A stretch of DNA of 62,738 nt, counting the filler, from Bonamia ostreae (Eukaryota): assembly GCA_040357525.1 (NCBI GenBank). It is 12 parts of 12 records of this genome, joined end to end, with 100 filler letters (N's around TTAATTAATTAA, not from the genome) between each part and the next. Parts side by side here need not be neighbours in the genome. Positions count along the whole stretch, not along the records: positions 36,880 to 41,994 come from JBDODL010000226.1; 11 more parts are not named here. One strand, written 5' to 3'. Of this stretch, positions 5,200 to 57,670 are shown piece after piece. The translations under genes were made by a program, and so were the position numbers. The stretch's first letter is position 1; each line of letters opens with the position of its first letter. The notes beneath the pieces are model-generated. The model saw only the letters and a program-made list of their open reading frames with translations. It was not told where the DNA came from and made no database searches.

Positions 5200-5299
5200 N
5201 NNNNNNNNNNNNNNNNNNNNNNNNNNNNNNNNNNNNNNNNNNNTTAATTAATTAANNNNNNNNNNNNNNNNNNNNNNNNNNNNNNNNNNNNNNNNNNNN
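5200..5299. other. Artificial contig spacer (N-run + TTAATTAATTAA + N-run)
   Basis: The same 100-nt six-frame-stop linker recurs at ~10497, 15787, 21074, 26335, 31560, 36780, 41995, 47204, 52394 and 57571. Confidence 0.97.
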
Positions 5300-10496: not shown

Positions 10497-10596
10497 NNNN
10501 NNNNNNNNNNNNNNNNNNNNNNNNNNNNNNNNNNNNNNNNTTAATTAATTAANNNNNNNNNNNNNNNNNNNNNNNNNNNNNNNNNNNNNNNNNNNN

Positions 10597-15689: not shown

Positions 15690-16067
15690 ATAAATTCATT
15701 TGACTATAATTATTAAGTGCTTAAATAAATAGTGCACGCAGACTATAAAATCTCTCCATTTTCCAATTTTTATTCGAAGATATGTCNNNNNNNNNNNNNN
15801 NNNNNNNNNNNNNNNNNNNNNNNNNNNNNNTTAATTAATTAANNNNNNNNNNNNNNNNNNNNNNNNNNNNNNNNNNNNNNNNNNNNTAAAACGACATATC
15901 TTCGAAAACAAAGCGTCGAAATCGCCACAAAAATGGAAAGCTGAGAGATTAAATCTTTATTGACTCTATAATTAAGCTACAAATTTTGTGCTACCATTAA
16001 AAACTAAATTTCGCTTATAAAAACCAAACATATTGAACGATACAGTAAAATCAAAGCTAAATTTTGC

Positions 16068-20909: not shown

Positions 20910-21296
20910 ATTTGTTAAATCTTTGATGTTGCTTTTTAATTATATTATCTGTACGCAATAATTCTGTTAATAAAACATAATATTGACAAATAAAAAATAT
21001 TGTTATTGAGGAAGTTTCAAAAATTTTAAAATGTGTGGTCAAGTTACGTTGATGTTACAGCTCTATCAGATTGNNNNNNNNNNNNNNNNNNNNNNNNNNN
21101 NNNNNNNNNNNNNNNNNTTAATTAATTAANNNNNNNNNNNNNNNNNNNNNNNNNNNNNNNNNNNNNNNNNNNNCAATATTTTTGTATGAGAAACAAGCAC
21201 AATTTTTAATTTTCCCACTTTAAATCGAAGAAATGCCAATGCGAATGGAAAAAAGAGAACAAAATTCATTTATACCATTCGAATTTTTTTCTCCAT

Positions 21297-26334: not shown

Positions 26335-26434
26335 NNNNNNNNNNNNNNNNNNNNNNNNNNNNNNNNNNNNNNNNNNNNTTAATTAATTAANNNNNNNNNN
26401 NNNNNNNNNNNNNNNNNNNNNNNNNNNNNNNNNN

Positions 26435-31559: not shown

Positions 31560-31659
31560 NNNNNNNNNNNNNNNNNNNNNNNNNNNNNNNNNNNNNNNNN
31601 NNNTTAATTAATTAANNNNNNNNNNNNNNNNNNNNNNNNNNNNNNNNNNNNNNNNNNNN

Positions 31660-34251
31660 TTTTGCCCATCAAAATAATCGTTCTCGCAGCCAAAACGCGA
31701 CATTTGTAAAAATAGTCGTCGCTTTTGAGCACTTGAAGCAATAGTTGGATTGCTTGCAGTGCGAACGGAGAGTTTTGTTGAATGTTTGCGAGAGCAGAGA
31801 TCGCTTCGCAATTCGCTTTGATATCGTTTGTGGGTTCGAGGAGTTTCACAATTGTTACCAAATCGCCAAATTTTTGTTTTGCCAAGAATATCCATTCGTA
31901 GCGGGGATCTAATCGTAGCCATTTTAGTGCTCTTTTTAGTTTTTTTTTAAATTTTTAGAAGAATTTTGTCGTTTTTTTAATTTCAAAATTTTGACGATTT
32001 TAAGAAAATTTTGTTGTTGTTTTTAATTTCAAAATTTTGACGTTTTTAAGAAAATTTTGATGTTGTTTTTTTTTAAATTTTCTCGATTTTTAGAAGAATT
32101 TTGCCGTTTTTTTTAATTTGCAAAATTTTGACGTTTTTAAGAAAATTTTGACGTTTTTTTTTTAAATTGCAAAATTTTGTAAAAATTAATAAAAACGTAA
32201 AATTTTCACCATCGACATTCTTCTGAACAGATCCTCCACATTGAATTCGAAACTATCGAAAACTAAATTTAAAAAACATTAGAAATCGGCGAATTCGAAA
32301 TGGCAATCGATTTATCTAATTTCGATAATGTTATTCTTCTTATTCCGAGTTGATTTTCTTCGAAAACAACGACCGGTTTTGCCAAAGTCTAAAATTTGTC
32401 ATTTTTAAAAATCTTCAAAACTTTAGAAAAGCTAAAATCTTTTTGCAGAACATTTTTGGACACATTTTCCATTTTCAGGCCGACGACTCTTTTCCTCGAA
32501 TCGAAAGAGATATCGACCATATAAACTGGGACGTTGTTGTTATAGATATAATTATCAAATACCTTTTGTATTGTTACAATTGTCTTACTTAAAATGATTT
32601 TTTTACTACTTTTCACTTTGTTACAATTATTTGGAAAAATGTATTTTCATTGTTGCTACTTTTCAAATTTAAAACGTCTTTAATTTGTCGAGAAGGCACT
32701 TTGGATATCAAATTTTGCTCAAATTTTTCCGTTTTTACGATTTCATTGGACAGAGCAAGTCCCTTAAAAAAGCTTTTAAACTCCGTTTTCCCGATAATAA
32801 TTTCAATTAAACTTAAAATCAAAAATCCTTTTTTTCTTATTCTTTTTTCAAGATTTTTATCAAAATTGGAAAGTTTTGTTTTATTGGAATTGGACAATGA
32901 ATGATGGACATAATCGTTCTTCCAATCAAATCGACTTGAAAACTTCCGATATTCGCAAAAATTTGGTCCGAATTCATCTGCTATAAAAAGTGAACGAAGG
33001 TATTCGCTTAAAGCGAGGGATATCCATTGATCGGAAGAAGGAGGAAATATTTTTTGGCACCAATTTTTGGCTATTGCCAAAGCTATGTTTTTTCTGGACG
33101 AGAAAACTAAATCGATGTCTTTTTCAGAGTAGAGATATTTGCTGTCCAAAACAATTAGTTTGTGACAATTTGTAATTGGATTTACCGATTTATCAACGAA
33201 GCACTATTTTTGAAGTTTTTAAATCGAAGAATTTTGAAAATTTTTGCAATTTCAAGAAAAGCGACAAATATTTTTGCAATTTAATCAAAAACGACAAAAT
33301 ATTCAAATTTTTGTAATTTCAACAAAAATAAAAAATAGTTTTAACAAAATTTTTAGAAAAAACAAAATATTGTCGATCAAAAGGATATTCTGTACACAAA
33401 AAATCTTCATAAACGGCAATTGCCCGCTTAACAAATTTAAAGCTTTCTGGATTTATCGACTTTAAAATGGTCAATAAAACTTAAAAACTTTATTTTTTGG
33501 ATAAACGAATAAAAATTCTGTTTTTTCGTGAACGAAAAAATATTGTTCAAAATCTCCGCAAACGAACCTTATTTTATTGTAATCAAAGTTATTATTAAAA
33601 TTCGAGGAAAAGCTAAAATTTGTCATCTTTTTCGCTTTTCGTTTTTGTGCTGTTTTTTCTCCGTTAAAAACAACAATGTTTTCATCGTCACAACTAAAAT
33701 TCAAACAAAATTTTTTCATCGACTTCTCATTTTCAATTTTTGGGATCCAATTGGAATTGTAACTTAAGATTTCTAAACGTGAAATTTTAAACGGAAATTG
33801 GGTTTTGGCTCAACTTTTAATCCGACGTCGTTTTTGCATTTTGCCAAATTAATCGAATAAACGATATCTAATTCAATTTGAGCCAAATTGCAATCTGATT
33901 TTGGGATGTTTATTAACAGATTGCCTTCTTTTCTTTTCTCTAGAATTTTTGTAAAAGCCTTCTATCAATTAAAGTTGGAACTTGAACTTCCGCAAAATTT
34001 TGCAGTTGTGTTTTCGCAAGAATTTTTTTATTGTTTAAAATTTTGTAGTCGTTTTTATTGTTTAGAAAAGTTTTGTTCACAAAGATTTTTTCAATTTTAA
34101 TCGATTTGTTGCTGAAATTAAGTCTTATCGAATTTTGGTCTTTTTCTGTTTTAGCCGTTTTGGATTTAAGGCGCATCCAGGAATTGAACCGAATAGAATT
34201 GTCAAATGTTCTAATTTCAAGTTTTTGTTCTTCTATTAGAAAACCGGACAT
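31660..34251 (-). CDS. TAF2: TFIID subunit TAF2 (aminopeptidase-like fold; 3' truncated)
   Basis: YEDFLCTEYPF, YLYSEKDID, SDQWISLALSEYL, KWLRLDPRYEW, DIKANCEAISAL and YFYKCRVLAA match TAF2 blocks. Confidence 0.75.
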
Positions 34252-34396
34252 AGCTACTAATATAATCGGCGCTTAAAAGCTAATATATTAAAAGTTATTT
34301 TATAGAAATTACTTAATATTTAAGTGAGCTTTAATAATGGAGATATTGAATATTAAGTACATATTTTTGTTTTTAAGAAATCTTTATGAATAAAAT

Positions 34397-34948
34397 TTAT
34401 TCACCAAAAAAGCGTTTAAGAAGGTCGTTAAAGCTTTCGTTAAAATGGTGAAAGAAATCAAGATTTTGGCTAGAATCGGTTTCATCAGGAAAATTACTTT
34501 CGTTTGTGATTATTTTTCCGTTTTCGATGACAATTTTTCTGTGAAATGTTTTGCCGTTTATTGTTCTGGTTTCTTCGTTCATTCTGAAATCCGCTTCGTC
34601 GTTGCTAACAATTTTACTCTCTTTCGCTCTAAATGAGTCGACTGTTCTTTTTGGGCCAAAATCGTCTGTTTTTCTCGTTTTTGGGGTTTCGGCTAATCGG
34701 TCTATGCTCTGAAAAGCCTTTTCAATTTGTCTTTCGTTCATTTTTGCTAAAAATTTTAGATGGTTAAAAGTGTCTTCTTGGTTGTCGTCCCAAAACTTTT
34801 TCTGAGAATCGATTGGTTTTGTTTCCGTCTTTTCCATTTTGTTGCGTAGTCTATCGCAGACATTGTTGAACATTGGCAAATTGCAGACAAAATTGGTAAA
34901 GCGCTCTGTCAAACTAAAATCGTAAAGGAAGGAAACCCGGGAGGACAA
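34397..34948 (-). CDS. Hypothetical protein (start uncertain)
   Basis: 183-aa open frame, no recognised motif. Confidence 0.45.
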   Translation of the reverse strand: MSSRVSFLYDFSLTERFTNFVCNLPMFNNVCDRLRNKMEKTETKPIDSQKKFWDDNQEDTFNHLKFLAKMNERQIEKAFQSIDRLAETPKTRKTDDFGPKRTVDSFRAKESKIVSNDEADFRMNEETRTINGKTFHRKIVIENGKIITNESNFPDETDSSQNLDFFHHFNESFNDLLKRFFGE

Positions 34949-35128
34949 TCATTGCAACGTTTTTTGGGATTTTGATCCGACATTTTCGTTGTGCTGATTA
35001 TATGACTTTTGTTTAAAATTTTGATTTCCAAATTTTGGAATGTCGCAAAAATAAAATCTGAGATTTTAACTTATCTTTATTTGGTTTGCAAAAATATTAA
35101 TGTTCAACTTTAAATTTTACAAAAATAT

Positions 35129-35362
35129 TTATCTTTTAAGCGCAGTTTCGTATGCACTAGCGATGTTAGCAATTCTCCAAAGATATTTGAGATTCTCATT
35201 TATTCTTTTTTGGTATTCCAAGGCTCCGTAAAAATCTCTTTTTTCTTGATGTTCTTTGACAATTTGTAATAAAAGTCGATTTTCCTCCAAATATGAATCG
35301 ATGGTTGTTTTGTCTAAAACTGTTTTTGACATTAGCTGCGCCCTGTTATCCTTTTTGCCCAT
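35129..35362 (-). CDS. SSXT/SS18 N-terminal domain protein (SS18L2/GIF-like)
   Basis: TIDSYLEENRLLLQIVKEHQ...EYQKRINENLKYLWRIAN matches SSXT IQKMLDENHHLIQCI...YQQMLHTNLVYLATIAD. Confidence 0.8.
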   Translation of the reverse strand: MGKKDNRAQLMSKTVLDKTTIDSYLEENRLLLQIVKEHQEKRDFYGALEYQKRINENLKYLWRIANIASAYETALKR

Positions 35363-35588
35363 TTCTATCTAATTCTTATAAGATTTTTCAGTTAAAGATT
35401 AAAATTTTCAGTTAATTTTTGTTTTATTGGACGATTTTTGTCGTTTTCTAATATTTCGTCGTTTTACAATATTTTGTCGTTTTCCCATGTTATCAACATT
35501 TTCGAAAAGATAAATCGCTTTCCAAAATTTTTAAATTTCTAAAACCTTTAAAAAGACAGAAAATTTACATTACGATTTATTTTACATT

Positions 35589-36705
35589 TTAAGTTTTCAA
35601 CTCTCTTTTTGAAGGAGGAACCATTTCGAGAGGCAGCTTTCCTTCCATTGACGGACCGTTTCCCGCTTTAAACAATTCTACGAGATGCATGCAAACCGCA
35701 AATTCGTCTCGGTCCTAAATTTTTCCGAATTAGCAAAATTAGAAAAAGCAGATAAAAACGAGAGCTCGATCTCCGTCCATATCGCTCCATTCCCATATTC
35801 GGCGTAAAGCTTTCATCGGAAGATTAGATTCCGACATAATGTTTTTCGCTTTTTTGCCGGGAATTTTGGAGCCATCCTTGCTAACTTTGTCAAATAGGCT
35901 GTCAAAACGTGATTTCAACGCACCTGATATCACCCATCCTTTCTGTTTGTACAGTTCGTTTCCGTTGTGCTCCGTTTCTTCGTTGATGAGAATGTATTCT
36001 CTGTCTTCTTCGGGATTGTCTGAACAACAGAAGATTTCTTCTTTGTCGATGACTTGCAAATTTTTTTTCGAATTGAGATGTTTCGGAAGACTGCCCAGTA
36101 TTTGCGGAATATCTTAATTTTTGATTGTAAACTTTCAGAAAGGGCCACTTCCAAGCGCTGAATAGCTTTCTTCGTCAGCTTTTTAAACGAAGACAATTCG
36201 ACTGTTTCGAGTGCACTCCGAAATTGCAGAACATTCGGAAAGTCTCCCCGCGGCAGCCCATATTTGTCCATGACTTCTTCGAACTCGACTTTGAGGTTCC
36301 TTTGGATCTTTTTCTGCTTTTTCGCTTTCCCGAAGAAGCCAATTTTCTCTCTTAAATGAGAGATCAACAGTGCGTGTATCCTCACCATTTTCGCGCGTTT
36401 TACGAGTTCGTTGATTTTGCGCACCATCGAAAAACGCGGCAAAGAACGAAGGTCGGCGATCAAGTCGGATTCTTCTGCTTCGAACAATTCTGCGCAGGTT
36501 TTCTCTAGGAATTGCTGATCCCAGAACGATCCGATATAAATGCGAGGCACTTCCGGCGTTTTCACGGTTTTCCCGAGGCTCCACATCAATGCTCCGTAAA
36601 CGCGCATTAGTTGCTGACTTGTCACACAATCTGCTTTGTTTAGAATGCATCTTATTTTGTCGTCATGACCTTTTAGTGCATAAATGGCTTCTTTCATCTC
36701 ATCTT
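35589..36705 (-). CDS. EH-domain dynamin-like ATPase EHD/RME-1 (5' truncated)
   Basis: DEMKEAI...HDDKIRCILNKAD...QLMRVYGALMWSLGK...TPEVPRIYIGSFWD, then EH domain LRRIWEWSDMDGDRAL-DRDEFAVCMHL. Confidence 0.93.
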
Positions 36706-36954
36706 CAGTTTTTTAAAGTTTATCAAAAAAGCCATTAATCGCAACATTAAAAAATATTGCAATTTTTGAAATATCTAAANNNNNNNNNNNNNNNNNNNNN
36801 NNNNNNNNNNNNNNNNNNNNNNNTTAATTAATTAANNNNNNNNNNNNNNNNNNNNNNNNNNNNNNNNNNNNNNNNNNNNGCCAAAAATGTTAAAATTTTA
36901 GATAAAAATCTTTCTTATACCGCGAATAGCTAAAACATCTGGGCAATTTAATCG

Positions 36955-37985
36955 ATGACCAGACATTCCAAAAACAACACATCTCTCGGATATTTTACAA
37001 AAGCCGAGAAAGATAAGCTCAAAAAGGATTATGGCACCATTGAAGCCCGTCTCGACAAGCGATCCATTAAAAACTTTTGCGATTGCGGGATTTGCTTAAA
37101 AACGGCCATTAATCCGTTGTGCTGGTTTGAACCATTTTTATCACAAATAAAAATACATCAAAACGGCCATTAAAATAGCAACGAAGGCCATATTTTTTGT
37201 CGAGAATGCATTCTAAAAAACATTCTGGCGCAAAGGAAGAGCCACAAAAACTTGAAAATGGCGTATAAAAATCACAAAGCGTCACTTAAAGTTGAAATCG
37301 ATAAACAAAATTTAAAAGAACAAACAAAACATCGAAATCGAGAAAGCGAAAACGGAAGCGCTAAAAACTTTCGAAAAAACGAACAACACTTTAAATTTCG
37401 CAGATTCGAATTCGCAACTTGAAGTCGAAACGAAAAGTCTCGAAAACGAATATGACTCTTCAGTTTGGGGCCTCCGAGTTGTTATAATTTTGAAATTTGC
37501 AAAATTGCTTTTTTATCCCAAAAACACAACAAAGAAAACGCCCGAAAACAAAATCAGACAAATAAAAAAACCGAATAAACTTAAAATAATTTGCCCAAGA
37601 AAGCAAAAAACGAGCGAAAACACAAAAATGGGCACTTTAGATCATCAAATAAGTTTTAAAAAATTGGCAAAAATTTCGTTTCTACTAAAAAATGGCGAGA
37701 TTTGGTGCAAAATCTGCGATAGGAAAATTAACAACAATTGCCAAACTGTGGCTTTGGTCGACTGTGGACATGTTTTTTGCCAAAAATGCGTCGAAAAAGC
37801 ATTAAAAAACGTTTTGTTTGGTAACTTAAAAAGTCCAAAATTTGCATTGAATGCGAAGAAAAGTTTAAGAAATATCAAAAATTGGAGAAAGGAGGTTTTG
37901 TCATTATTTTTTTTAAGGAAGCGGATTTGCGGCGCATGGAAATAATATTGAAGCGAAGAAATATAGTCAGCCATTTATATCTTGA
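36955..37985 (+). CDS. NOSIP: NOS-interacting protein / RING-type spliceosomal protein
   Basis: MTRHSKNNT...YGTIEARL...CGICL...GHIFCRECILKNIL, C-terminal RING CGHVFCQKCV, GGSGFAAHG. Five GT-AG introns. Confidence 0.9.
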
Positions 37986-38061
37986 TTAAATTTTTTGCAG
38001 TTCAATATTGTACATTTCATGTTTAAATATTTTGAATTTGATCAAAATGACATTTTCATAT

Positions 38062-40259
38062 TTAATCGTCTTCGTTGTCGTAATCATCCTGTTCGATACA
38101 AAATGGAGATCCATAGTAACCCCTTTTCGCTCTTTGCACAGCGTCAACAACAACAAGTTGCTTGAAAAACAGTTCGAGAGGATCAGAGTGGTTTATTCCC
38201 AAAATTGACAAAATGTTCTCGTTTACCAATTCTGACAATTTTTGGAGATGTTTTTTGTTGTAACATGGAGCATTTGATAGAACATTTGACTTTTTATAAA
38301 ATTATTTTTAGCAAGTTTTTATTTTACAAACGGCAAAGTTACAAATAAAACGAAAACAANNNNNNNNNNNNNNNNNNNNNNNNNNNNNNNNNNNNNNNNN
38401 NNNNNNNNNNNNNNNNNNNNNNNNNNNNNNNNNNNNNNNNNNNNNNNNNNNNNNNNNNNATTGAAAACCGATTTTTAGCAAACAATTTTTGAAAATATTT
38501 TTACAAATAAATCGAAAACAAATTGAAAACCGATTTTTAGCAAACAATTTTTGAAAATATTTTTACAAATAAATCGCAAAACATCATTAACAATTTGGTC
38601 ATTTTTCTCGATTTTGCAAAACGCGATGTGACTCAACACATTTTTCACCGCGTCGTCATAAACATGATTCCAATGTGGCGCCAAATATGGCTTCAATTCG
38701 ATTTCTGCGACGAGCAAAGCCGGTTCCAAACCTTTTTCTAAAAGCGTGTGAGAAAAGATCTGACAACGCAACGCAAAATCAATGTCACTGTCCAAATTTC
38801 CGAAATTTTTCCGAACCAGATTTAAAGCCTTTTGTGGTTTTCCGTCCAAAATAAAGTCTGAAACTCTTTTTACAATTGATGAAATTGGCAAATTTTGCAA
38901 AAATTGATAATTTCCATTTTTATCGAAATTTGAAAAATTTAAATTTTGATGAACGTTGTTTATCGATTTAAAAAAACTGACGACGGATCAACATTGTTTC
39001 AATAATTTTTTTTCTGCTTTCTGATGTGTTTGTAGTCAAATCGACGTTTGGTTTATTTTCCAAAGCCTAATTTTTTTGTCATTTTTATTATTTTTATTTT
39101 TGGACAATTTTTATTTATTGTCATTTTTAATTATTTTTGGCCAATTTTTGGGCAAATTTAAAAACTGATAAAGTTTGATGATATCCATGATGAATCAAAT
39201 ATTCACTAACAAAGGAACTGACCAAATTATCTGAAATTTCTAGAGAAGGTTTAATCATTATTCGCCGCATATAATCTTCACACAAATTCTTAAAAAAAAT
39301 TTTTTAACTAAAAAACTTTAACAATTTTGTTGACGTTTTCACAAGCAAACTTCTTTTGACCAAAATTCACTTTTATTTCGTCCCCCAAACCACCGAGACT
39401 TACTGCTGCGTAATGTGCACTTTCTATGTTTTCAAAGAGCATTCCGTCTTTTTAATCAAAATTGCATTAAAAAATTCAAAAAGTTAATTTTGTAAAAGCA
39501 TTTTCAATAATTTACACAAAAAAATAATTTACGTTCCAAAAAACCGATTATTTTTCCGTTTTGCGTAAAAAACATTTCGGCGTAATTAAACAATATTCCA
39601 CAACCCAAAACATCGCCGTCCTTTACAGATTCTCTCGAACGAGGAAAAATGAGCTTTTGCTGGTTTGTGCCTGCACCGTCTGTGCCATATCCAAACGAAC
39701 TTGACATGTTATTACATTCAATTTCTTGTTTGGGATCAAAATTTTTGTGGATCATTCCAATCGTAATTTTCTTTTTAAGTTTGATAATATCCACTTCAAA
39801 ATAATAGAAGAACTGGTTTATTGGAAGAGGTTGCTCCGAACGGATAGTGTGTTTTTAAATAAGAAAAATTTGATGAATTTTAAAATTTTGGTTGATTTTT
39901 TTAACCAGTTTTGCAATTTTTTATTAAGATTTTGGCAGATTTTTTAAGTACTTTTACAATTTAAGATTTTGGATGATTTTTTTAAAGTACTTTTGAAATT
40001 TTTTGGAAGATTTTTCAAAGAGTTTTGCAATAAATTTTGGCAATTTATTGAATGAAATAACAAAATTTCAAGACTGCAAACAAATTTGACTAATTATTGT
40101 TGAATAAAAGGATATCCCGCCCCTGTCAATAGACAGTTTACATATCGCGTGAACTCTGTCTGGATAAATTTTAATTGGCCAAGGAACATTTTCGATATGG
40201 AAACAATTTGGTTTAGCCGAATTTGAATCTGTGTAGTAGTCCTTTTTTGGGATATCCAT
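38062..40259 (-). CDS. SPRY-LisH-CTLH-CRA protein, RanBP9/10 (Gid1)-like
   Basis: SPRY TIRSEQPLP...FYYFEVDI, SFGYG, GDVLGCGI, FFTQNG, IKVNFGQ; LisH VSEYLIHHGYHQTL; CTLH ILDGKPQKAL...FALRCQIF. The first intron is AT-AC. Confidence 0.85.
39849..40115 (-). other. AT-AC (U12-type) intron, 267 nt
   Basis: 5' end ATATCCTTTT, 3' end TTTTTCTTATTTAAAAACAC. Phase-0 removal gives SIDRGG-TIRSEQPLP. No AG lies between the in-frame TAA and the SPRY exon start. Confidence 0.8.
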
Positions 40260-40499
40260 TTTTATCAAAAATCGGCAAATTTCAGAAAAAAATTGCCAAA
40301 TCCGCTAAAATCGAAAAAATATTACAAAAATCTGCTAAAAACGTTAAAAAAGATCGAATCGAAAAAATATTCCGAAAATTTACCAAAATAGTAAAAATAT
40401 TGCAAAATCTGCCAAAAACATTAAAAAAGATCGCAAAATCTGTTAAAACCAAAAACACTTTATTAGACATTTTCAGACATTTTTGCTATATTTACAAAA

Positions 40500-41501
40500 A
40501 TGTCGAAAATTTCTAATTCAACTGCTAATTTGCACGAGAGAATATTTGCCGCGTCATTTGGCGCTTTTTTGTGCACTTTAGCTGTAACGCCTTTTGACGT
40601 GATTAAAACACGTCTGCAAGTTATCAACTTTCACTTAAAGGCGAAAACTCTCAGTTGTTCTAAAAAAGCTTTGGAGCAATGCGAAACTTGCTATCCTCCC
40701 CAAAGCGCCCCCAAAAAACAATCGCCTCTCCAAAACCTGAAGTTCAGGTCAATGCGCTGTTACAGCCACGTGAAGGGCCCGTTACAAACTTTTTCCTTCA
40801 TTGTGCGCAATGAAGGATTTTTCGCGCTGTGGCGCGGAACAAGTGCTTCGTTGCTCTTTAGCATCCCGTCTTCAGCGCTTTATCTGAATTTCTACGAAGC
40901 GCTGCGTTCTTCGAAATTCGGATCCGGCGACAACGCCGGGCCGATTTTTTCGGGGATCTGCGCACGGTTCATCACCACAGCCATAATGTCGCCGGCTGAA
41001 TTCCTTCGAACGCGCACGCAATCCAAGCCAGGTCACGGCGGCGGCAGTCGTTATTGCACGGAAAGCATAACGAGCCAAGTGCGCAGAAACGGGATTTTCC
41101 ATTTGTGGCGGGGCGCCGGGTCAACTTTAGCGAGAGATGTCCCGTTCAGCGCGCTTTATTGGTTCGGATACGAAAAGCTGAAAAGCTTTTACGGAAACGT
41201 TTTGCCAAAAGAAAGTCCGAGTTTAATTTCGTTTTGTTCGGGGGCTTCATCTGGAGCGATGGCGGCTTTTTTGTTGACTCCGATGGACGTGGCAAAGACG
41301 CGGATACAGATGGACGGCAGCAAAGAGAAGACGAGAGCGTTTGAAGTCGCCTGGAAAATATTGAGGAGAGAAGGAATAAAAGAGGTTTTTAGAGGAGCGG
41401 TTGCGAGAATGCTGAAAATTCCGATCGCGTGCGCGGTGATGATATCGACGTACGAAGAAAGTAAAAGGCGTTTTGCGAAAAGAAGATTAAATTTTTGTTG
41501 A
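40500..41501 (+). CDS. Mitochondrial carrier, SLC25A39/40 (Mtm1)-like
   Basis: Three carrier repeats (TPFDVIKTRLQ, SPAEFLRTRTQ, TPMDVAKTRIQ), RDVPFSALYWFGYE, ACAVMISTYE, Cys-rich first matrix loop. Probable 21-nt in-frame intron at 40620-40640. Confidence 0.88.
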   Translation: MSKISNSTANLHERIFAASFGAFLCTLAVTPFDVIKTRLQVINFHLKAKTLSCSKKALEQCETCYPPQSAPKKQSPLQNLKFRSMRCYSHVKGPLQTFSFIVRNEGFFALWRGTSASLLFSIPSSALYLNFYEALRSSKFGSGDNAGPIFSGICARFITTAIMSPAEFLRTRTQSKPGHGGGSRYCTESITSQVRRNGIFHLWRGAGSTLARDVPFSALYWFGYEKLKSFYGNVLPKESPSLISFCSGASSGAMAAFLLTPMDVAKTRIQMDGSKEKTRAFEVAWKILRREGIKEVFRGAVARMLKIPIACAVMISTYEESKRRFAKRRLNFC

Positions 41502-41597
41502 ATTTTTTTAGTTTTGGTCAGATTTTAAATATTTTCATGTTAAATTATATTTATAGGTCATAATATATTTAAATGTCAAATTTGTAGAACTTATTGT

Positions 41598-41669
41598 GGG
41601 GGGCTGGCGCAACGGTAGCGCGTTGGATTCCAAATCCAAAGGTTATGGGTTCGAATCCCCTGTCCCTCA
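41598..41669 (+). tRNA. trnW: tRNA-Trp(CCA)
   Basis: Acceptor GGGGGGC/GTCCCTC, D-stem GCGC/GCGC, anticodon stem TTGGA/TCCAA with loop TT-CCA-AA, T-loop TTCGAAT (one T-stem mismatch), downstream T-run terminator. Confidence 0.93.
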
Positions 41670-42094
41670 TTTTTGTTTTTCATTGATTATTTTTATTCAT
41701 AAATTTTTGTTCCCGCAATTTTGTCATCTTTCTAAAACTAAAATCGCTCACATCAAATTGAAAAATGTAAACCAAGAAAAAGCACGAACGCAAAAAGTTA
41801 TTATATTTATTATTGACATCAATAATTTTTATTTGAAATTGGGAACAATTTGTATTATGACAAATGTCTTTTTCGCTGCAAATTCTTGCTCACACAATTT
41901 TCGCCATTTTTTGTAAATTGGCTTTTTCGCTGCAAATTCTTTCACACAATTTTCGCCATTTTTTGTAAATTGACTTTTTAGTTGCAAATTTTACNNNNNN
42001 NNNNNNNNNNNNNNNNNNNNNNNNNNNNNNNNNNNNNNTTAATTAATTAANNNNNNNNNNNNNNNNNNNNNNNNNNNNNNNNNNNNNNNNNNNN

Positions 42095-43397: not shown

Positions 43398-46300
43398 ATG
43401 TCAGAAAAGATCTTGGTGGCGGTAAGAACACGGCCGATGATAAAAGAGGAAAAAGGAGAAAACGGAGAATCGCCTTGGACAGCAGAGCAAAATTACATTC
43501 TCAACCGCCGCGAAAACAAGAAATACATTTTCGGTCAAATTTGTGACTTTTAGACAAAGTTTTCGGCGAAAACACAACTACGCAATTTGTTTATAACTCG
43601 ATCGCCAAAGATATCGTCCGATCCGCTTTAGAAGGAAAGAACGGTAAATTTCAAAAATAAATTTGCAAAAATCAAAATTTACAAAAATTTTTAATTTAAC
43701 GCTAGGAACCATTTTCGCTTATGGCCAGACATCGAGCGGCAAAACTTACACGATAAGAGGCACTCCGGAAAATCACGGGATTACGCCGTTAGTGCTGAAA
43801 GACATTTTCAACAAAATAGCAAAGGTTGAATTCTACAATCGAAGAACATCTCGAGAGAGTTCCTGTTAAGCGTCAGTTACTTGGAAATTTACAACGAGAC
43901 CATTATCGATCTGCTGAACCCGGAAATCAAAGAACTGAAGATTTTCCAAGAAATAAATGTTGCGATTATCAAATTTCTAAATTAGGGCGGCGTCCTGGTC
44001 GACTGCTTAACCAAAAAAGTGATCGTGGACATTAAAGAAGGGATGACGCAATTCGACAACGGCGAAAGTTTTTTTGGCGACGTCAGGTTTTAGGCATTTC
44101 GGGGCCACGAAAATGAATGAGGAATCGAGTAGAAGCCACACTATTTTTCAATTGCACATCGAAAGCCGACTTGTAAAATGACTTTTCTTGATTTAGCCAT
44201 TTTTGTAAAATTGACTTTTGTTAAAATTTCCAAAATTGTCGGAATAATAAATGGAAAATTTCGAAAATAGAAAGAGAACAAGGACAAATCGATAAGATAT
44301 TCGACGTTGAATTTAGTCGATTTGGCGGGTTCCGAAAGACTGCGGAAAAACAAAGAAAGCGGAATAAGGTCGAGCGAAAGTGCTCATATCAACAAAAGTC
44401 TTCTCACGCTCGAAAGAGTGATCCACTCGTTAAGCGAAAATAAGTTTTTTGGGCTTTAGAAATTTTTCGTTAAGCGAAATTNNNNNNNNNNNNNNNNNNN
44501 NNNNNNNNNNNNNNNNNNNNNNNNNNNNNNNNNNNNNNNNNNNNNNNNNNNNNNNNNNNNNNNNNNNNNNNNNNNNNNNNNTGTCACTTTGAAATTTCAA
44601 AAATAAAACAAATTTCATAAATTGAAAATTTTTTGACAAAACAGAAATTTGTCGCACATTCCCTTTCGAGACTCAAAATTGACTCGGATTTTGCAGCCAG
44701 CTTTAGGCGGAAATTCGAGAACAGTTGTAATCGTCACGATAACTCCGTCAAGCGCATTCGTCGACGAGACGAAAAAGTCGCTTTCGTTTGCGAACAGAGC
44801 CGCAAATGTGACGAACCGCGTTTTCGTGAACGAAATCGTCGACGACGCGACCAAAATACAGTTTCTCAGGGAAAAAGTAGCCCAACTCGAAAACGAACTT
44901 GATTCGAACAACGCAGAAAACGAACAACTCGATTCCAAAAAAAGCGAAACGGAAAACATAAAAAAAGAACTTGAAACGTTGAAAATGAAATTGGAGATCA
45001 GCAAACGCTCCGAAGAAGCGTGGAAAGAACGCTTCAACAAACTTTTCGGATTCGAAAACAACTCCAAAAAATTGTCAAACAACAACAAAAATATTGCGAA
45101 GAGTTTGATAAAAAGGAAAATGGACCGAAGAAAAACTCTCGGCGTTCTGGGAAACAAAAACTTCAAATTTGAACAAACCGAGAAAAAACAAAATTTGTCA
45201 AATAATTTCAAATTCGACAAAAACGCAAATTTGCCGAATAAAAAATTTGCCAAAAATTTGACGGCGAACAAAACGTTAATAGAATCGATGAGACTCAAAT
45301 TGTCGGAAGCGAATACAAAAAACGATTTGCTGGAAAAGAAAATTTTTGAAATGGGAAACCAAATCGAGAATTTTGAGAAAACCAAAATTAATTTGGAAAA
45401 CAAAATTGAGTTTGAAAAAAAGGAGAGAATGGCGGAAATTGTAAAAGCAGAAGAAAAGTTTGAAGCAAAAGTTGGCGATTTTAAGGAAAAAATGGATTTT
45501 CTGAAAAGGAAAAATCAAAATTTGGAAGAAAAACAGTTTCGCTATTTTTAATAAAGCTTTACTAAAAAAATAAACAAAATTTGTCATAAAAGATTAAAAA
45601 TGAAAATTTCAGAAAAAATTTTAATAAAAAAGATTCGAATTGAAGGAAAGTTTGATATCATCAAGGAACAGGTTAAAAGAAAAAGAAAATGAAATCGAAA
45701 CGAAAAATCGAAAAATCGAAAAAAATTTGGAAAAAATGGCTAAAATCGAATTCAAATTTAATCAAAAAAGAAGCGATTTAATCAAAAAAGTGACAAATCT
45801 CGAGGAAAACAATGTTTTTCTAAAAGAACAGAGCAATAAGAAAAGTTTGAAACAAATTGAGGAATTACAAAATTTGTTAAAAGAACGCGAATCTGTTTAT
45901 TAAAAAACGCAATTTTCAAAATTTTTCGATTTTGCCAATTTTTAAAAATTAGAAAATAACAGAACTTTCGAAAAGTTTGATATGCGAAGAGGACAAAATG
46001 GCAAAATTGGGGCGCAGTTTGAACGAGATGAACGATGTTATTTCCTTTTAAAAATTTAGTCGTCGCAAAGAGATAGAAATATTATCGTCGAGTTAAAAAG
46101 CCGTTTGAAGAATTCTAAACAAATCGAAGTCGAGTACAAAAATTTACATGAGAATTTGAAGTACCTTAAAAATCAGTTTATTTTTGACTAATTATTTAAT
46201 GAATTTTCGAATCGACAAAATTTTTATTATTTCGCGATTTTTGATTTTGCAAAATAAATTCGCAATTAAAAAAATTAGACAAAAAGAGAAAACAGAAAAA

Positions 46301-47019
46301 TGGGAAATGACCGAAAAACAGTTAGAAAAGGAAAGAACGAAAAGAGAACAAACGGAAACTTTATTGAACAAAGAATCGCAATCGACACAGTTTCTCAGAC
46401 AAAAATTGAACGAAAAAAGCAAAATCTGTGAAGATCTGCTCAGAAAACTTTCTGAAAATACTCTCAAAATGGCGCAGAACACACAAAAAACAACTGAAAA
46501 AGATATTGTCAAAGTCGAAAACAAATCAAAAAATGGTGAAAATTACTCAAAAGAACAGTTCAAATTTGCTCAAAAAATGGCGAAGTCGCCAGAAAATAGT
46601 AATCTGAGAAGAGAACTGGAAAGATTAAATGCCGAAAATTCAAATTTAGTGACACAACTCGAATCAATGGCTGACGAAATTGAGAGGCGAACATGTCAAT
46701 TTGAGGCTAAAGACGAAGAGAAAAATCGACTAGAAAACATTGTAAATGAACAAAACGCAAAAATTGAATCTCTAAAAAAGAGATTGTTGGCAGAAGATTT
46801 CAAGCGCGGAGAGATTTTTGGAAAAGCTGACGTTCCAAAAATTTATATTGATAACAATATCTTTTATAAACTTTTTAACAATATAAAAATTGATTTTGGC
46901 AACAATATTATAAAAATTGATTTTGGCAACAATATTATAAAAATCAATATCGGTAACAATATTATAAAAATTTAGTAACTAAAAATTTTAAAGAAAGAGA
47001 ACATAAAAGAAAAAAGTGA
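43398..47019 (+). CDS. N-terminal-motor kinesin, kinesin-7/CENP-E-like (3' end approximate)
   Basis: [79 protein letters not shown], then a long coiled coil. Many 19-27 nt introns. Confidence 0.9.
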
Positions 47020-47420
47020 AACAGAAATGCCGGAAAAGGATTTGACTGAAATCGAAAAACTAAAAAATGAGGTAAATAGATTGGTGTCAAGAGAGCAAGT
47101 ACTTTATAAAAACTACAAGGCAAAAATTGATAAAAAGGACAAAACTTACGACAATGTTTTAGAATTTCATAAATTTTCATTGTTACCGGTCAAATAACAT
47201 TTTNNNNNNNNNNNNNNNNNNNNNNNNNNNNNNNNNNNNNNNNNNNNTTAATTAATTAANNNNNNNNNNNNNNNNNNNNNNNNNNNNNNNNNNNNNNNNN
47301 NNNTAATTCCATTAACGCTTTTTAGACATTCCAGTTTTTAGAAGAAAAACATTATCTCATTACATTTTTCAAAATTGAGCAAGATAAACAATTTTTGGCA
47401 GTTTAAATTGATCAAAATTA

Positions 47421-52393: not shown

Positions 52394-52493
52394 NNNNNNN
52401 NNNNNNNNNNNNNNNNNNNNNNNNNNNNNNNNNNNNNTTAATTAATTAANNNNNNNNNNNNNNNNNNNNNNNNNNNNNNNNNNNNNNNNNNNN

Positions 52494-57569: not shown

Positions 57570-57670
57570 ANNNNNNNNNNNNNNNNNNNNNNNNNNNNNN
57601 NNNNNNNNNNNNNNTTAATTAATTAANNNNNNNNNNNNNNNNNNNNNNNNNNNNNNNNNNNNNNNNNNNN

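Follow-up and report, generated by a model that had tools for sequence, protein, structure and literature searches.

The oyster parasite Bonamia ostreae, a protist of the Rhizaria and a reduced intracellular haplosporidian, carries in a RanBP9/10-like gene an intron that begins with AT and ends with AC, and whose 267 nucleotides (nt) are removed exactly from the mRNA (ATATCCTTTT to ...AAACAC). The intron lies at 39849..40115 on the minus strand of the window, by which we mean the whole 62,738-nt stretch of assembly GCA_040357525.1 that was analysed. We favour its interpretation as a genuine U12-type AT-AC intron that would be spliced by a retained U12-dependent (minor) spliceosome, whose machinery we infer from the intron, and place the probability of this reading at about 0.6. 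It is likewise somewhat probable that B. ostreae possesses a working U12-dependent spliceosome, which would be the first minor splicing demonstrated in Rhizaria. In kind, the element is an ordinary U12-type AT-AC intron, and what is new is the lineage in which it is found; an intron with this signature suggests, but does not prove, that the minor spliceosome has been kept in the protist group to which Bonamia belongs. The AT-AC junction is already present in a public gene model, and no description of it as U12-type was found in the literature covered.

On the minus strand, coding exon 1 (40116..40259; 48 codons, MDIPKK...KLSIDRGG, from the start ATG at 40259-40257) ends ...GAC AGG GGC GGG at 40116 and is followed by the 5' splice site ATATCCTTTT (40106..40115). 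The intron ends ...TTTTTCTTATTTAAAAACAC, with its terminal AC at 39849..39850, and the SPRY exon begins at 39848 with ACTATCCG (ACT ATC CGT TCG). The intron interrupts the gene in phase 0, and its removal preserves the reading frame, with GGG (codon 48) joined to ACT (codon 49) and the protein continuing TIRSEQ.... The intron itself contains in-frame stops. One of these, a TAA at 39857-39855 (TAA AAA CAC | ACT), is separated from the exon start by a sequence with no AG, and the first AG past it sits within exon 2 (TCGGAG). The original prediction, that GT-AG splicing offers no route to the start of the SPRY exon, is thus borne out by the sequence. Coordinates were taken from a reading of the minus strand over 38400-41200 and from a scripted slice, and the two agree.

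Evidence from transcripts was obtained by locating the stretch 38480-41480 in two public runs, X1 and X2. X1 was consulted as Logan contigs, and its run type (RNA) is a guess; X2, a 'mollusc metagenome' (share 0.07), contributes no evidence. A single X1 contig (1289 nt, depth 135.8) spans the gene in five pieces without the AT-AC intron, skipping 267 nt between 39847 and 40115 with the ends TG..TA on the plus strand and one ambiguous letter. When shifted by that letter, the joint becomes 39849-40115, or AT...AC on the gene strand; the sole alternative placement reads TA...CA, and neither is GT-AG. The contig also skips 38866-38977, 39066/7-39164/5, and 39448-39544, all of which are CT..AC on the plus strand and GT..AG on the gene strand, and past 38583 it has nine further letters in agreement with the exon that comes next in the deposited protein MHBO_001069. 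Because this contig lacks all six introns of the gene, it represents a processed mRNA copy. The interior of the AT-AC intron is covered by no X1 contig. X1 differs from the window by five substitutions and one inserted letter and therefore derives from a different isolate or haplotype. One of the substitutions, at 40233, is synonymous (TAC to TAT), and the insertion falls within the A-run immediately 5' of the ATG. Spliced transcripts across 40116^39848 had been proposed as a check on the AT-AC junction, and the contig joins exactly these exons.

The deposited NCBI hypothetical protein of B. ostreae, MHBO_001069 (410 amino acids, aa), is 100% identical to the translated SPRY exon and reads ...KLSIDRGGTIRSEQPLP..., i.e., DRGG|TIRS, across the same AT-AC junction, with coding exon 1 supplying its residues 1-48. 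This model and X1 are not counted as independent, a shared RNA source being possible; together they agree with the phase 0 removal and restored frame that had been predicted. The assignment of the gene as RanBP9/10-like was also sustained. Pfam identified in MHBO_001069 a SPRY domain (E 4.3e-12), a CTLH/CRA region (26.5 bits, cut-off 26), and a LisH motif that falls under its cut-off (18 bits against 21.6), and the domain order SPRY, LisH, CTLH/CRA is that of a CTLH-complex subunit of the RanBP9/RanBP10/Gid1 type, with LisH below threshold. The closest solved structures in the PDB are human RanBP10 (9soc_A, E 1.4e-11) and RanBP9 (7nsc_A, E 4e-10). In both cases the alignment begins at residue 48, the position of the splice junction (GTIRSEQPLP versus ASVRATHPIP). 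Translation of the conserved SPRY core from the sole upstream ATG therefore requires removal of the AT-AC intron. Homologous-protein searches returned MHBO_001069 itself and nothing else, and the metagenome scan found no relative of the gene.

These observations bear on an account in which there is no real intron, the joint being an artefact of reverse transcription or assembly, or else a polymorphic 267-bp deletion in the DNA, with translation starting elsewhere. In its favour are the guessed nature of the X1 run, the presence of the joint on one contig only, and an intron length that is divisible by 3. Nevertheless, this account is highly improbable. The contig in question lacks introns 2 to 5 and continues beyond the intron 6 donor into the final exon, as expected of processed mRNA and not of DNA, and the homology at the joint amounts to 1 nt, which is too little for template switching. 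Furthermore, the stops within the intron, the restoration of the frame precisely where the RanBP9/RanBP10 alignment begins, and the identical junction in the deposited model all argue for splicing, while initiation at the following in-frame ATG, which lies in exon 2, would cost the protein part of its SPRY domain.

The U12-type donor consensus is RTATCCTTT, and the donor ATATCCTTT at 40115-40107 matches it at nine of nine positions, as the original prediction of a perfect U12-type donor had it. Given AT at the intron border, the seven further consensus bases have a chance probability of ~1e-4, under either window or intron composition. The motif by itself does not exceed chance, since RTATCCTT occurs in 2 copies in the window versus 2.96 expected; the part that is not due to chance is its coincidence with a transcript-verified junction that is not GT-AG. 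The second copy (ATATCCTT, 33381-33388, minus strand) was rejected as a donor: it lies in an exon that resembles TAF2 or an aminopeptidase, where it codes for E-Y-P-F (GAA TAT CCT TTT), and the true donor near 33388 is GTTTTTTCTA (GTTTTTT), 20 nt downstream at ~33364, in the TAF2-like gene of block 31660-36779. Human TAF2 has a minor-intron entry in the covered part of the PMC11347168 supplement. When the search was relaxed to RTATC[CT]T[TC], with a requirement for 30 or more open codons upstream, 10 sites emerged in the window, of which three were read in detail (40115, 33388, and 16389) and a fourth, 46857, was judged by its position. As donors, 16389 was rejected because it is coding (I-S-S), and 46857 because it was taken as coding, lying within the open reading frame (ORF) 46160..46975.

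All five GT-AG donors of the RanBP9/10-like gene begin GTTTT[TC], as does the donor of the intron in the TAF2-like gene, an unusual consensus for the major class. The AT-AC donor, ATATCC, has instead A, C, and C at positions +3, +5, and +6, and by its bases it is of a class distinct from the GT-AG donors of the gene. AT-AC introns of the U2 type exist, with donors that resemble the U2-type donor except at position 1. This description does not fit the Bonamia intron, in which ATATCC departs from the local GTTTT[TC] well beyond the first position.

Several observations weigh against a retained minor spliceosome. No minor snRNA (small nuclear RNA) or U11/U12-specific protein of Bonamia was seen in a search limited to the window. 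Rfam, at gathering thresholds and at E up to 1, detected no snRNA in the window and returned only a tRNA and a chance-level match to mir-287, and Pfam, run on 122 of the 156 ORFs of at least 90 aa and on 150 of the 185 of 55-99 aa, detected no RRM or small nuclear ribonucleoprotein (snRNP) protein. The 122 are those of at least 100 aa, excluding overlapping ORFs and the RanBP9/10-like and carrier-gene ORFs, which were scanned separately; the 185 are the subset with a GC content of at least 0.33 among 266. In the parts of the published survey that were covered, no minor spliceosome components were identified in the rhizarians included, Bigelowiella, Plasmodiophora, and Reticulomyxa, and minor or minor-like introns are described from lineages without detectable minor snRNAs, namely alveolates, a cryptophyte, and rhizarians such as Reticulomyxa (Olthof et al., 2024; PMC11347168). 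According to the covered part of Larue and Roy (2023; PMC10639083), minor introns classically tend to avoid phase 0, and the Bonamia intron is phase 0. RANBP9 and RANBP10 have no occurrence in eight supplement files of human and mouse minor-intron genes, so that the position does not coincide with a minor intron known to be conserved; a position shared with orthologues is supportive and not strictly defining. Finally, only one such intron was found in ~61 kb distributed over 12 unlinked contigs, with four of the 10 relaxed-scan sites assessed.

The branch site adds a further reservation. U12-type branch sites resemble TCCTTAAC and lie ~10-20 nt from the 3' splice site. Within the last 40 nt of the intron, the best match to this element is TTCTTATT, which agrees at five of eight positions and puts the candidate branch A (39860) at a distance of 11 nt from the last intron base, as is usual in U12-type introns. 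However, five of eight is also attained at 8-20 nt from the end by 36% of AT-rich background 40-mers, and a match of this quality also occurs in two of the gene's GT-AG introns, so that simple branch-site matching was rejected as evidence. A narrower pattern, in which the A of a YYCTTA core falls 10-16 nt from the end, is met in 0.47% of the background, a figure to be read in light of the post hoc choice of the pattern. The sequence between the candidate branch site and the 3' end, TTTAAAAACAC, is without a polypyrimidine tract, but this feature does not discriminate, as the GT-AG introns end in similarly A-rich sequence. Accepted human minor introns include some with T-rich branch sites, for example CTTTTCTTGACT and CATTCTTTAATA (PMC6717393 supplement). 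The candidate branch site TTCTTAT (39859..39865, minus strand) is accordingly a weak match that is compatible with, and no evidence for, a U12-type intron: the degenerate branch element that had been pointed out near the 3' end is present, but it carries little weight against this background.

A second account regards the element as a relic or look-alike of a U12-type intron, with ATATCC...AC accepted by a major spliceosome that is relaxed, reduced, or of hybrid character, and no separate minor spliceosome. We consider this unlikely, although far less so than an artefact. The local GTTTT[TC] donors pair poorly with the canonical 5' end of U1, which would fit a major spliceosome of relaxed requirements, and the existence of U2-type AT-AC introns also counts in its favour. 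The literature lends it further substance, within the parts of each source covered: the absence of identified minor snRNAs in the surveyed rhizarians and the minor-like introns of alveolates and a cryptophyte (PMC11347168), the reduced spliceosomes of ascetosporean relatives, among which the mikrocytids are almost intronless (PMC11069148), and the snRNAs of Giardia, which have hybrid U2/U12 features (PMC6679479). Bonamia itself lies outside the rhizarian survey, with no occurrence in the PMC11347168 supplement. The donors themselves speak against this account. The AT-AC donor has nothing specific in common with the five GTTTT[TC] donors, and the known U2-type AT-AC introns have donors that are U2-like except at the first position. 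Moreover, a donor that matches at nine of nine positions would not be expected to last without selection by U11 and U6atac. After loss of the minor spliceosome, U12-type donors decay or convert, so that a perfect donor is an argument for selection still exerted by these two snRNAs.

Under the favoured reading of a U12-type intron with its own spliceosome, the donor would be read by U11 and then by U6atac, and U12 would bind TTCTTAT, 11 nt from the 3' end, with A39860 as the putative branch point. A working U12-dependent spliceosome would be kept beside the major one, which would handle the five other introns of the gene (GTTTT[TC]...AAG or TAG).

Publications on Bonamia and its relatives offer little on minor splicing. 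The covered part of the genome paper describes the B. ostreae draft as 12.24 Mb in 9705 scaffolds, with 'canonical introns' that average 2 per mRNA, and places losses of splicing genes at the ancestor of paramyxids and mikrocytids (PMC11069148). Neither 'U12' nor 'AT-AC' occurs in that paper, and those of its supplements that were covered contain no mention of U11, U12, RNPC3, SNRNP35, or ZCRB1, splicing being represented there only by lines of Gene Ontology enrichment. Splicing terms have no occurrence in PMC9329632. In Larue and Roy (2023; PMC10639083), within the part covered, 'Rhizaria' is absent from the main text and Table 2, on the 5' positional bias of minor introns, has no rhizarian clade. 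No publication was found that ties Bonamia, haplosporidians, or Ascetosporea to U12, AT-AC, or minor introns, and no published minor splicing was found in Rhizaria or Ascetosporea, a statement on which the per-species tables of PMC10639083 and PMC11347168, outside the coverage, may bear.

The U12-type AT-AC introns of animals and plants (Minor Intron Database, human and mouse; PMC6717393) share with the Bonamia intron its terminal AT and AC, the donor ATATCCTTT, a branch-like element situated ~11 nt before the 3' end, the lack of a pyrimidine tract, and a host gene in which one minor intron is accompanied by several of the major class. The Bonamia intron differs from them in its rhizarian host, its degenerate branch element TTCTTAT, its phase 0 position, and a machinery that is inferred only, and the RanBP9/10 family is absent from the human and mouse lists. 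The closest parallel is found in Blastocystis, a reduced parasitic stramenopile of the same supergroup, SAR (stramenopiles, alveolates, and Rhizaria), in which 77% of minor introns are AT-AC and a bias toward phase 0 is seen, according to the covered part of PMC10639083. Minor splicing had earlier been missed in this lineage, and the part of the literature covered reports that the complete machinery was found once it was looked for. Blastocystis differs in having hundreds of minor introns (346 or 253), with all four snRNAs and seven specific proteins identified, whereas the Bonamia case consists of one intron. With the minor-like introns that lack detectable minor snRNAs, the Bonamia intron has its rhizarian context in common; in the covered part of that study (Olthof et al., 2024; PMC11347168) those introns were called by position-weight matrices on annotations, while that of Bonamia combines a perfect donor with an AT-AC junction verified by a transcript. 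The Bonamia intron shares its AT-AC termini with U2-type AT-AC introns, whose donors are U2-like after position 1 where that of Bonamia is U12-like. U2-type AT-AC introns were reportedly treated by Wu and Krainer and by Dietrich et al. in 1997.

Mapping where minor splicing has survived provides the basis for models of its persistence. If the favoured reading is correct, the failure to detect minor snRNAs in other rhizarians would reflect later losses or divergent snRNAs that were missed, and both spliceosomes would have been present in the ancestor of Ascetosporea, with the mikrocytid branch then losing almost all splicing. If the machinery is present, Ascetosporea would range from two spliceosomes, in Bonamia, to almost none, in mikrocytids. 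Rhizarian minor splicing is now directly testable on the existing Bonamia assembly and RNA-seq. Gene finders limited to GT-AG introns would miss the start of the RanBP9/10-like gene.

The window consists of 12 contigs, arranged in descending order from 5199 to 5068 nt and separated by 100-nt spacers made up of 44 N, TTAATTAATTAA, and 44 N. These spacers occupy 5200-5299, 10497-10596, 15787-15886, 21074-21173, 26335-26434, 31560-31659, 36780-36879, 41995-42094, 47204-47303, 52394-52493, and 57571-57670. Because the window joins separate contigs, gene order across its blocks is not real synteny. The RanBP9/10-like gene is contained entirely within the block 36880-41994, whose 5115 nt equal the stated length of the contig that encodes MHBO_001069. 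All of its features are on the minus strand, beginning with a 5' untranslated region (UTR) followed to the limit of the transcript contig (40260..40442; the X1 contig record covers 40115-40442). Exon 2, which encodes the SPRY core (TIRSEQPLPINQFFYYFEV...; Pfam SPRY E 4.4e-10), extends over 39545..39848.

The five GT-AG introns follow downstream of exon 2. Intron 2 (39448..39544, 97 nt) has the donor GTTTTTTGGA and the acceptor AAAAAG and is defined by an X1 joint. Intron 3 (39289..39316; donor GTTTTTTAGT, acceptor TTTAAG) corresponds to a 28-letter gap in the X1 contig and to the junction ...IVK|NLCED in MHBO_001069; at 28 nt, this intron (GTTTTTTAGTTAAAAAATTTTTTTTAAG) stands in the same gene beside introns of 97-267 nt. 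X1 joints likewise define intron 4 (39067..39165, 99 nt; donor GTTTTTAAAT, acceptor AATTAG), with one ambiguous letter, and intron 5 (38866..38977, 112 nt; donor GTTTTTTTAA, acceptor AAAAAG). Intron 6 (38290..38582; donor GTTTTCAATT, acceptor AAAAAG) is placed by the end of the X1 contig at 38583, which continues as MHBO_001069 does, and is followed by the last coding exon (38183..38289, ..VKCSIKCS...GNKPL, stop TGA). Together, introns 2 to 6 (38290-39544) have A-rich ends, AAAAAG, TTTAAG, or AATTAG, without a pyrimidine tract. The intron lengths of the gene are 28, 97, 99, 112, and 267 nt, while the sixth spans an N gap; the description of this genome as one of tiny introns fits only one of the six, that of 28 nt. 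The N gap (38360-38459) is adjoined by a 39-nt stretch that is duplicated 62 nt apart with 97% identity (38480-38580), and this duplication beside the 100-N gap may stem from an error of assembly.

The body of the AT-AC intron (39879-40047) is composed of degenerate ~40-nt repeats, which are the inverted complement of repeats at 40270-40451, in the 5' UTR and upstream of it. The arms of the inverted repeat are 34-50 nt long and 74-80% complementary, and TTGCCAAAAT-like units are also present in introns 4 and 5. The repeats of the intron body and 5' UTR may pair in the pre-mRNA, or they may be a plain dispersed AT-rich repeat.

Further genes are located on the contig of the AT-AC intron. A mitochondrial carrier gene occupies 40467-41501 on the plus strand, and within it, at 40803-41307, the summed depth of X1 contigs ranges from 6,988 to 47,956 versus ~136 for the RanBP9/10-like mRNA, although contig depth is a poor measure and other organisms may contribute to these values. 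One 170-nt X1 contig in this region is identical to the window. Just 3' of the carrier gene, at 41598-41669 on the plus strand, there is a tRNA gene (Rfam, 62.8 bits).

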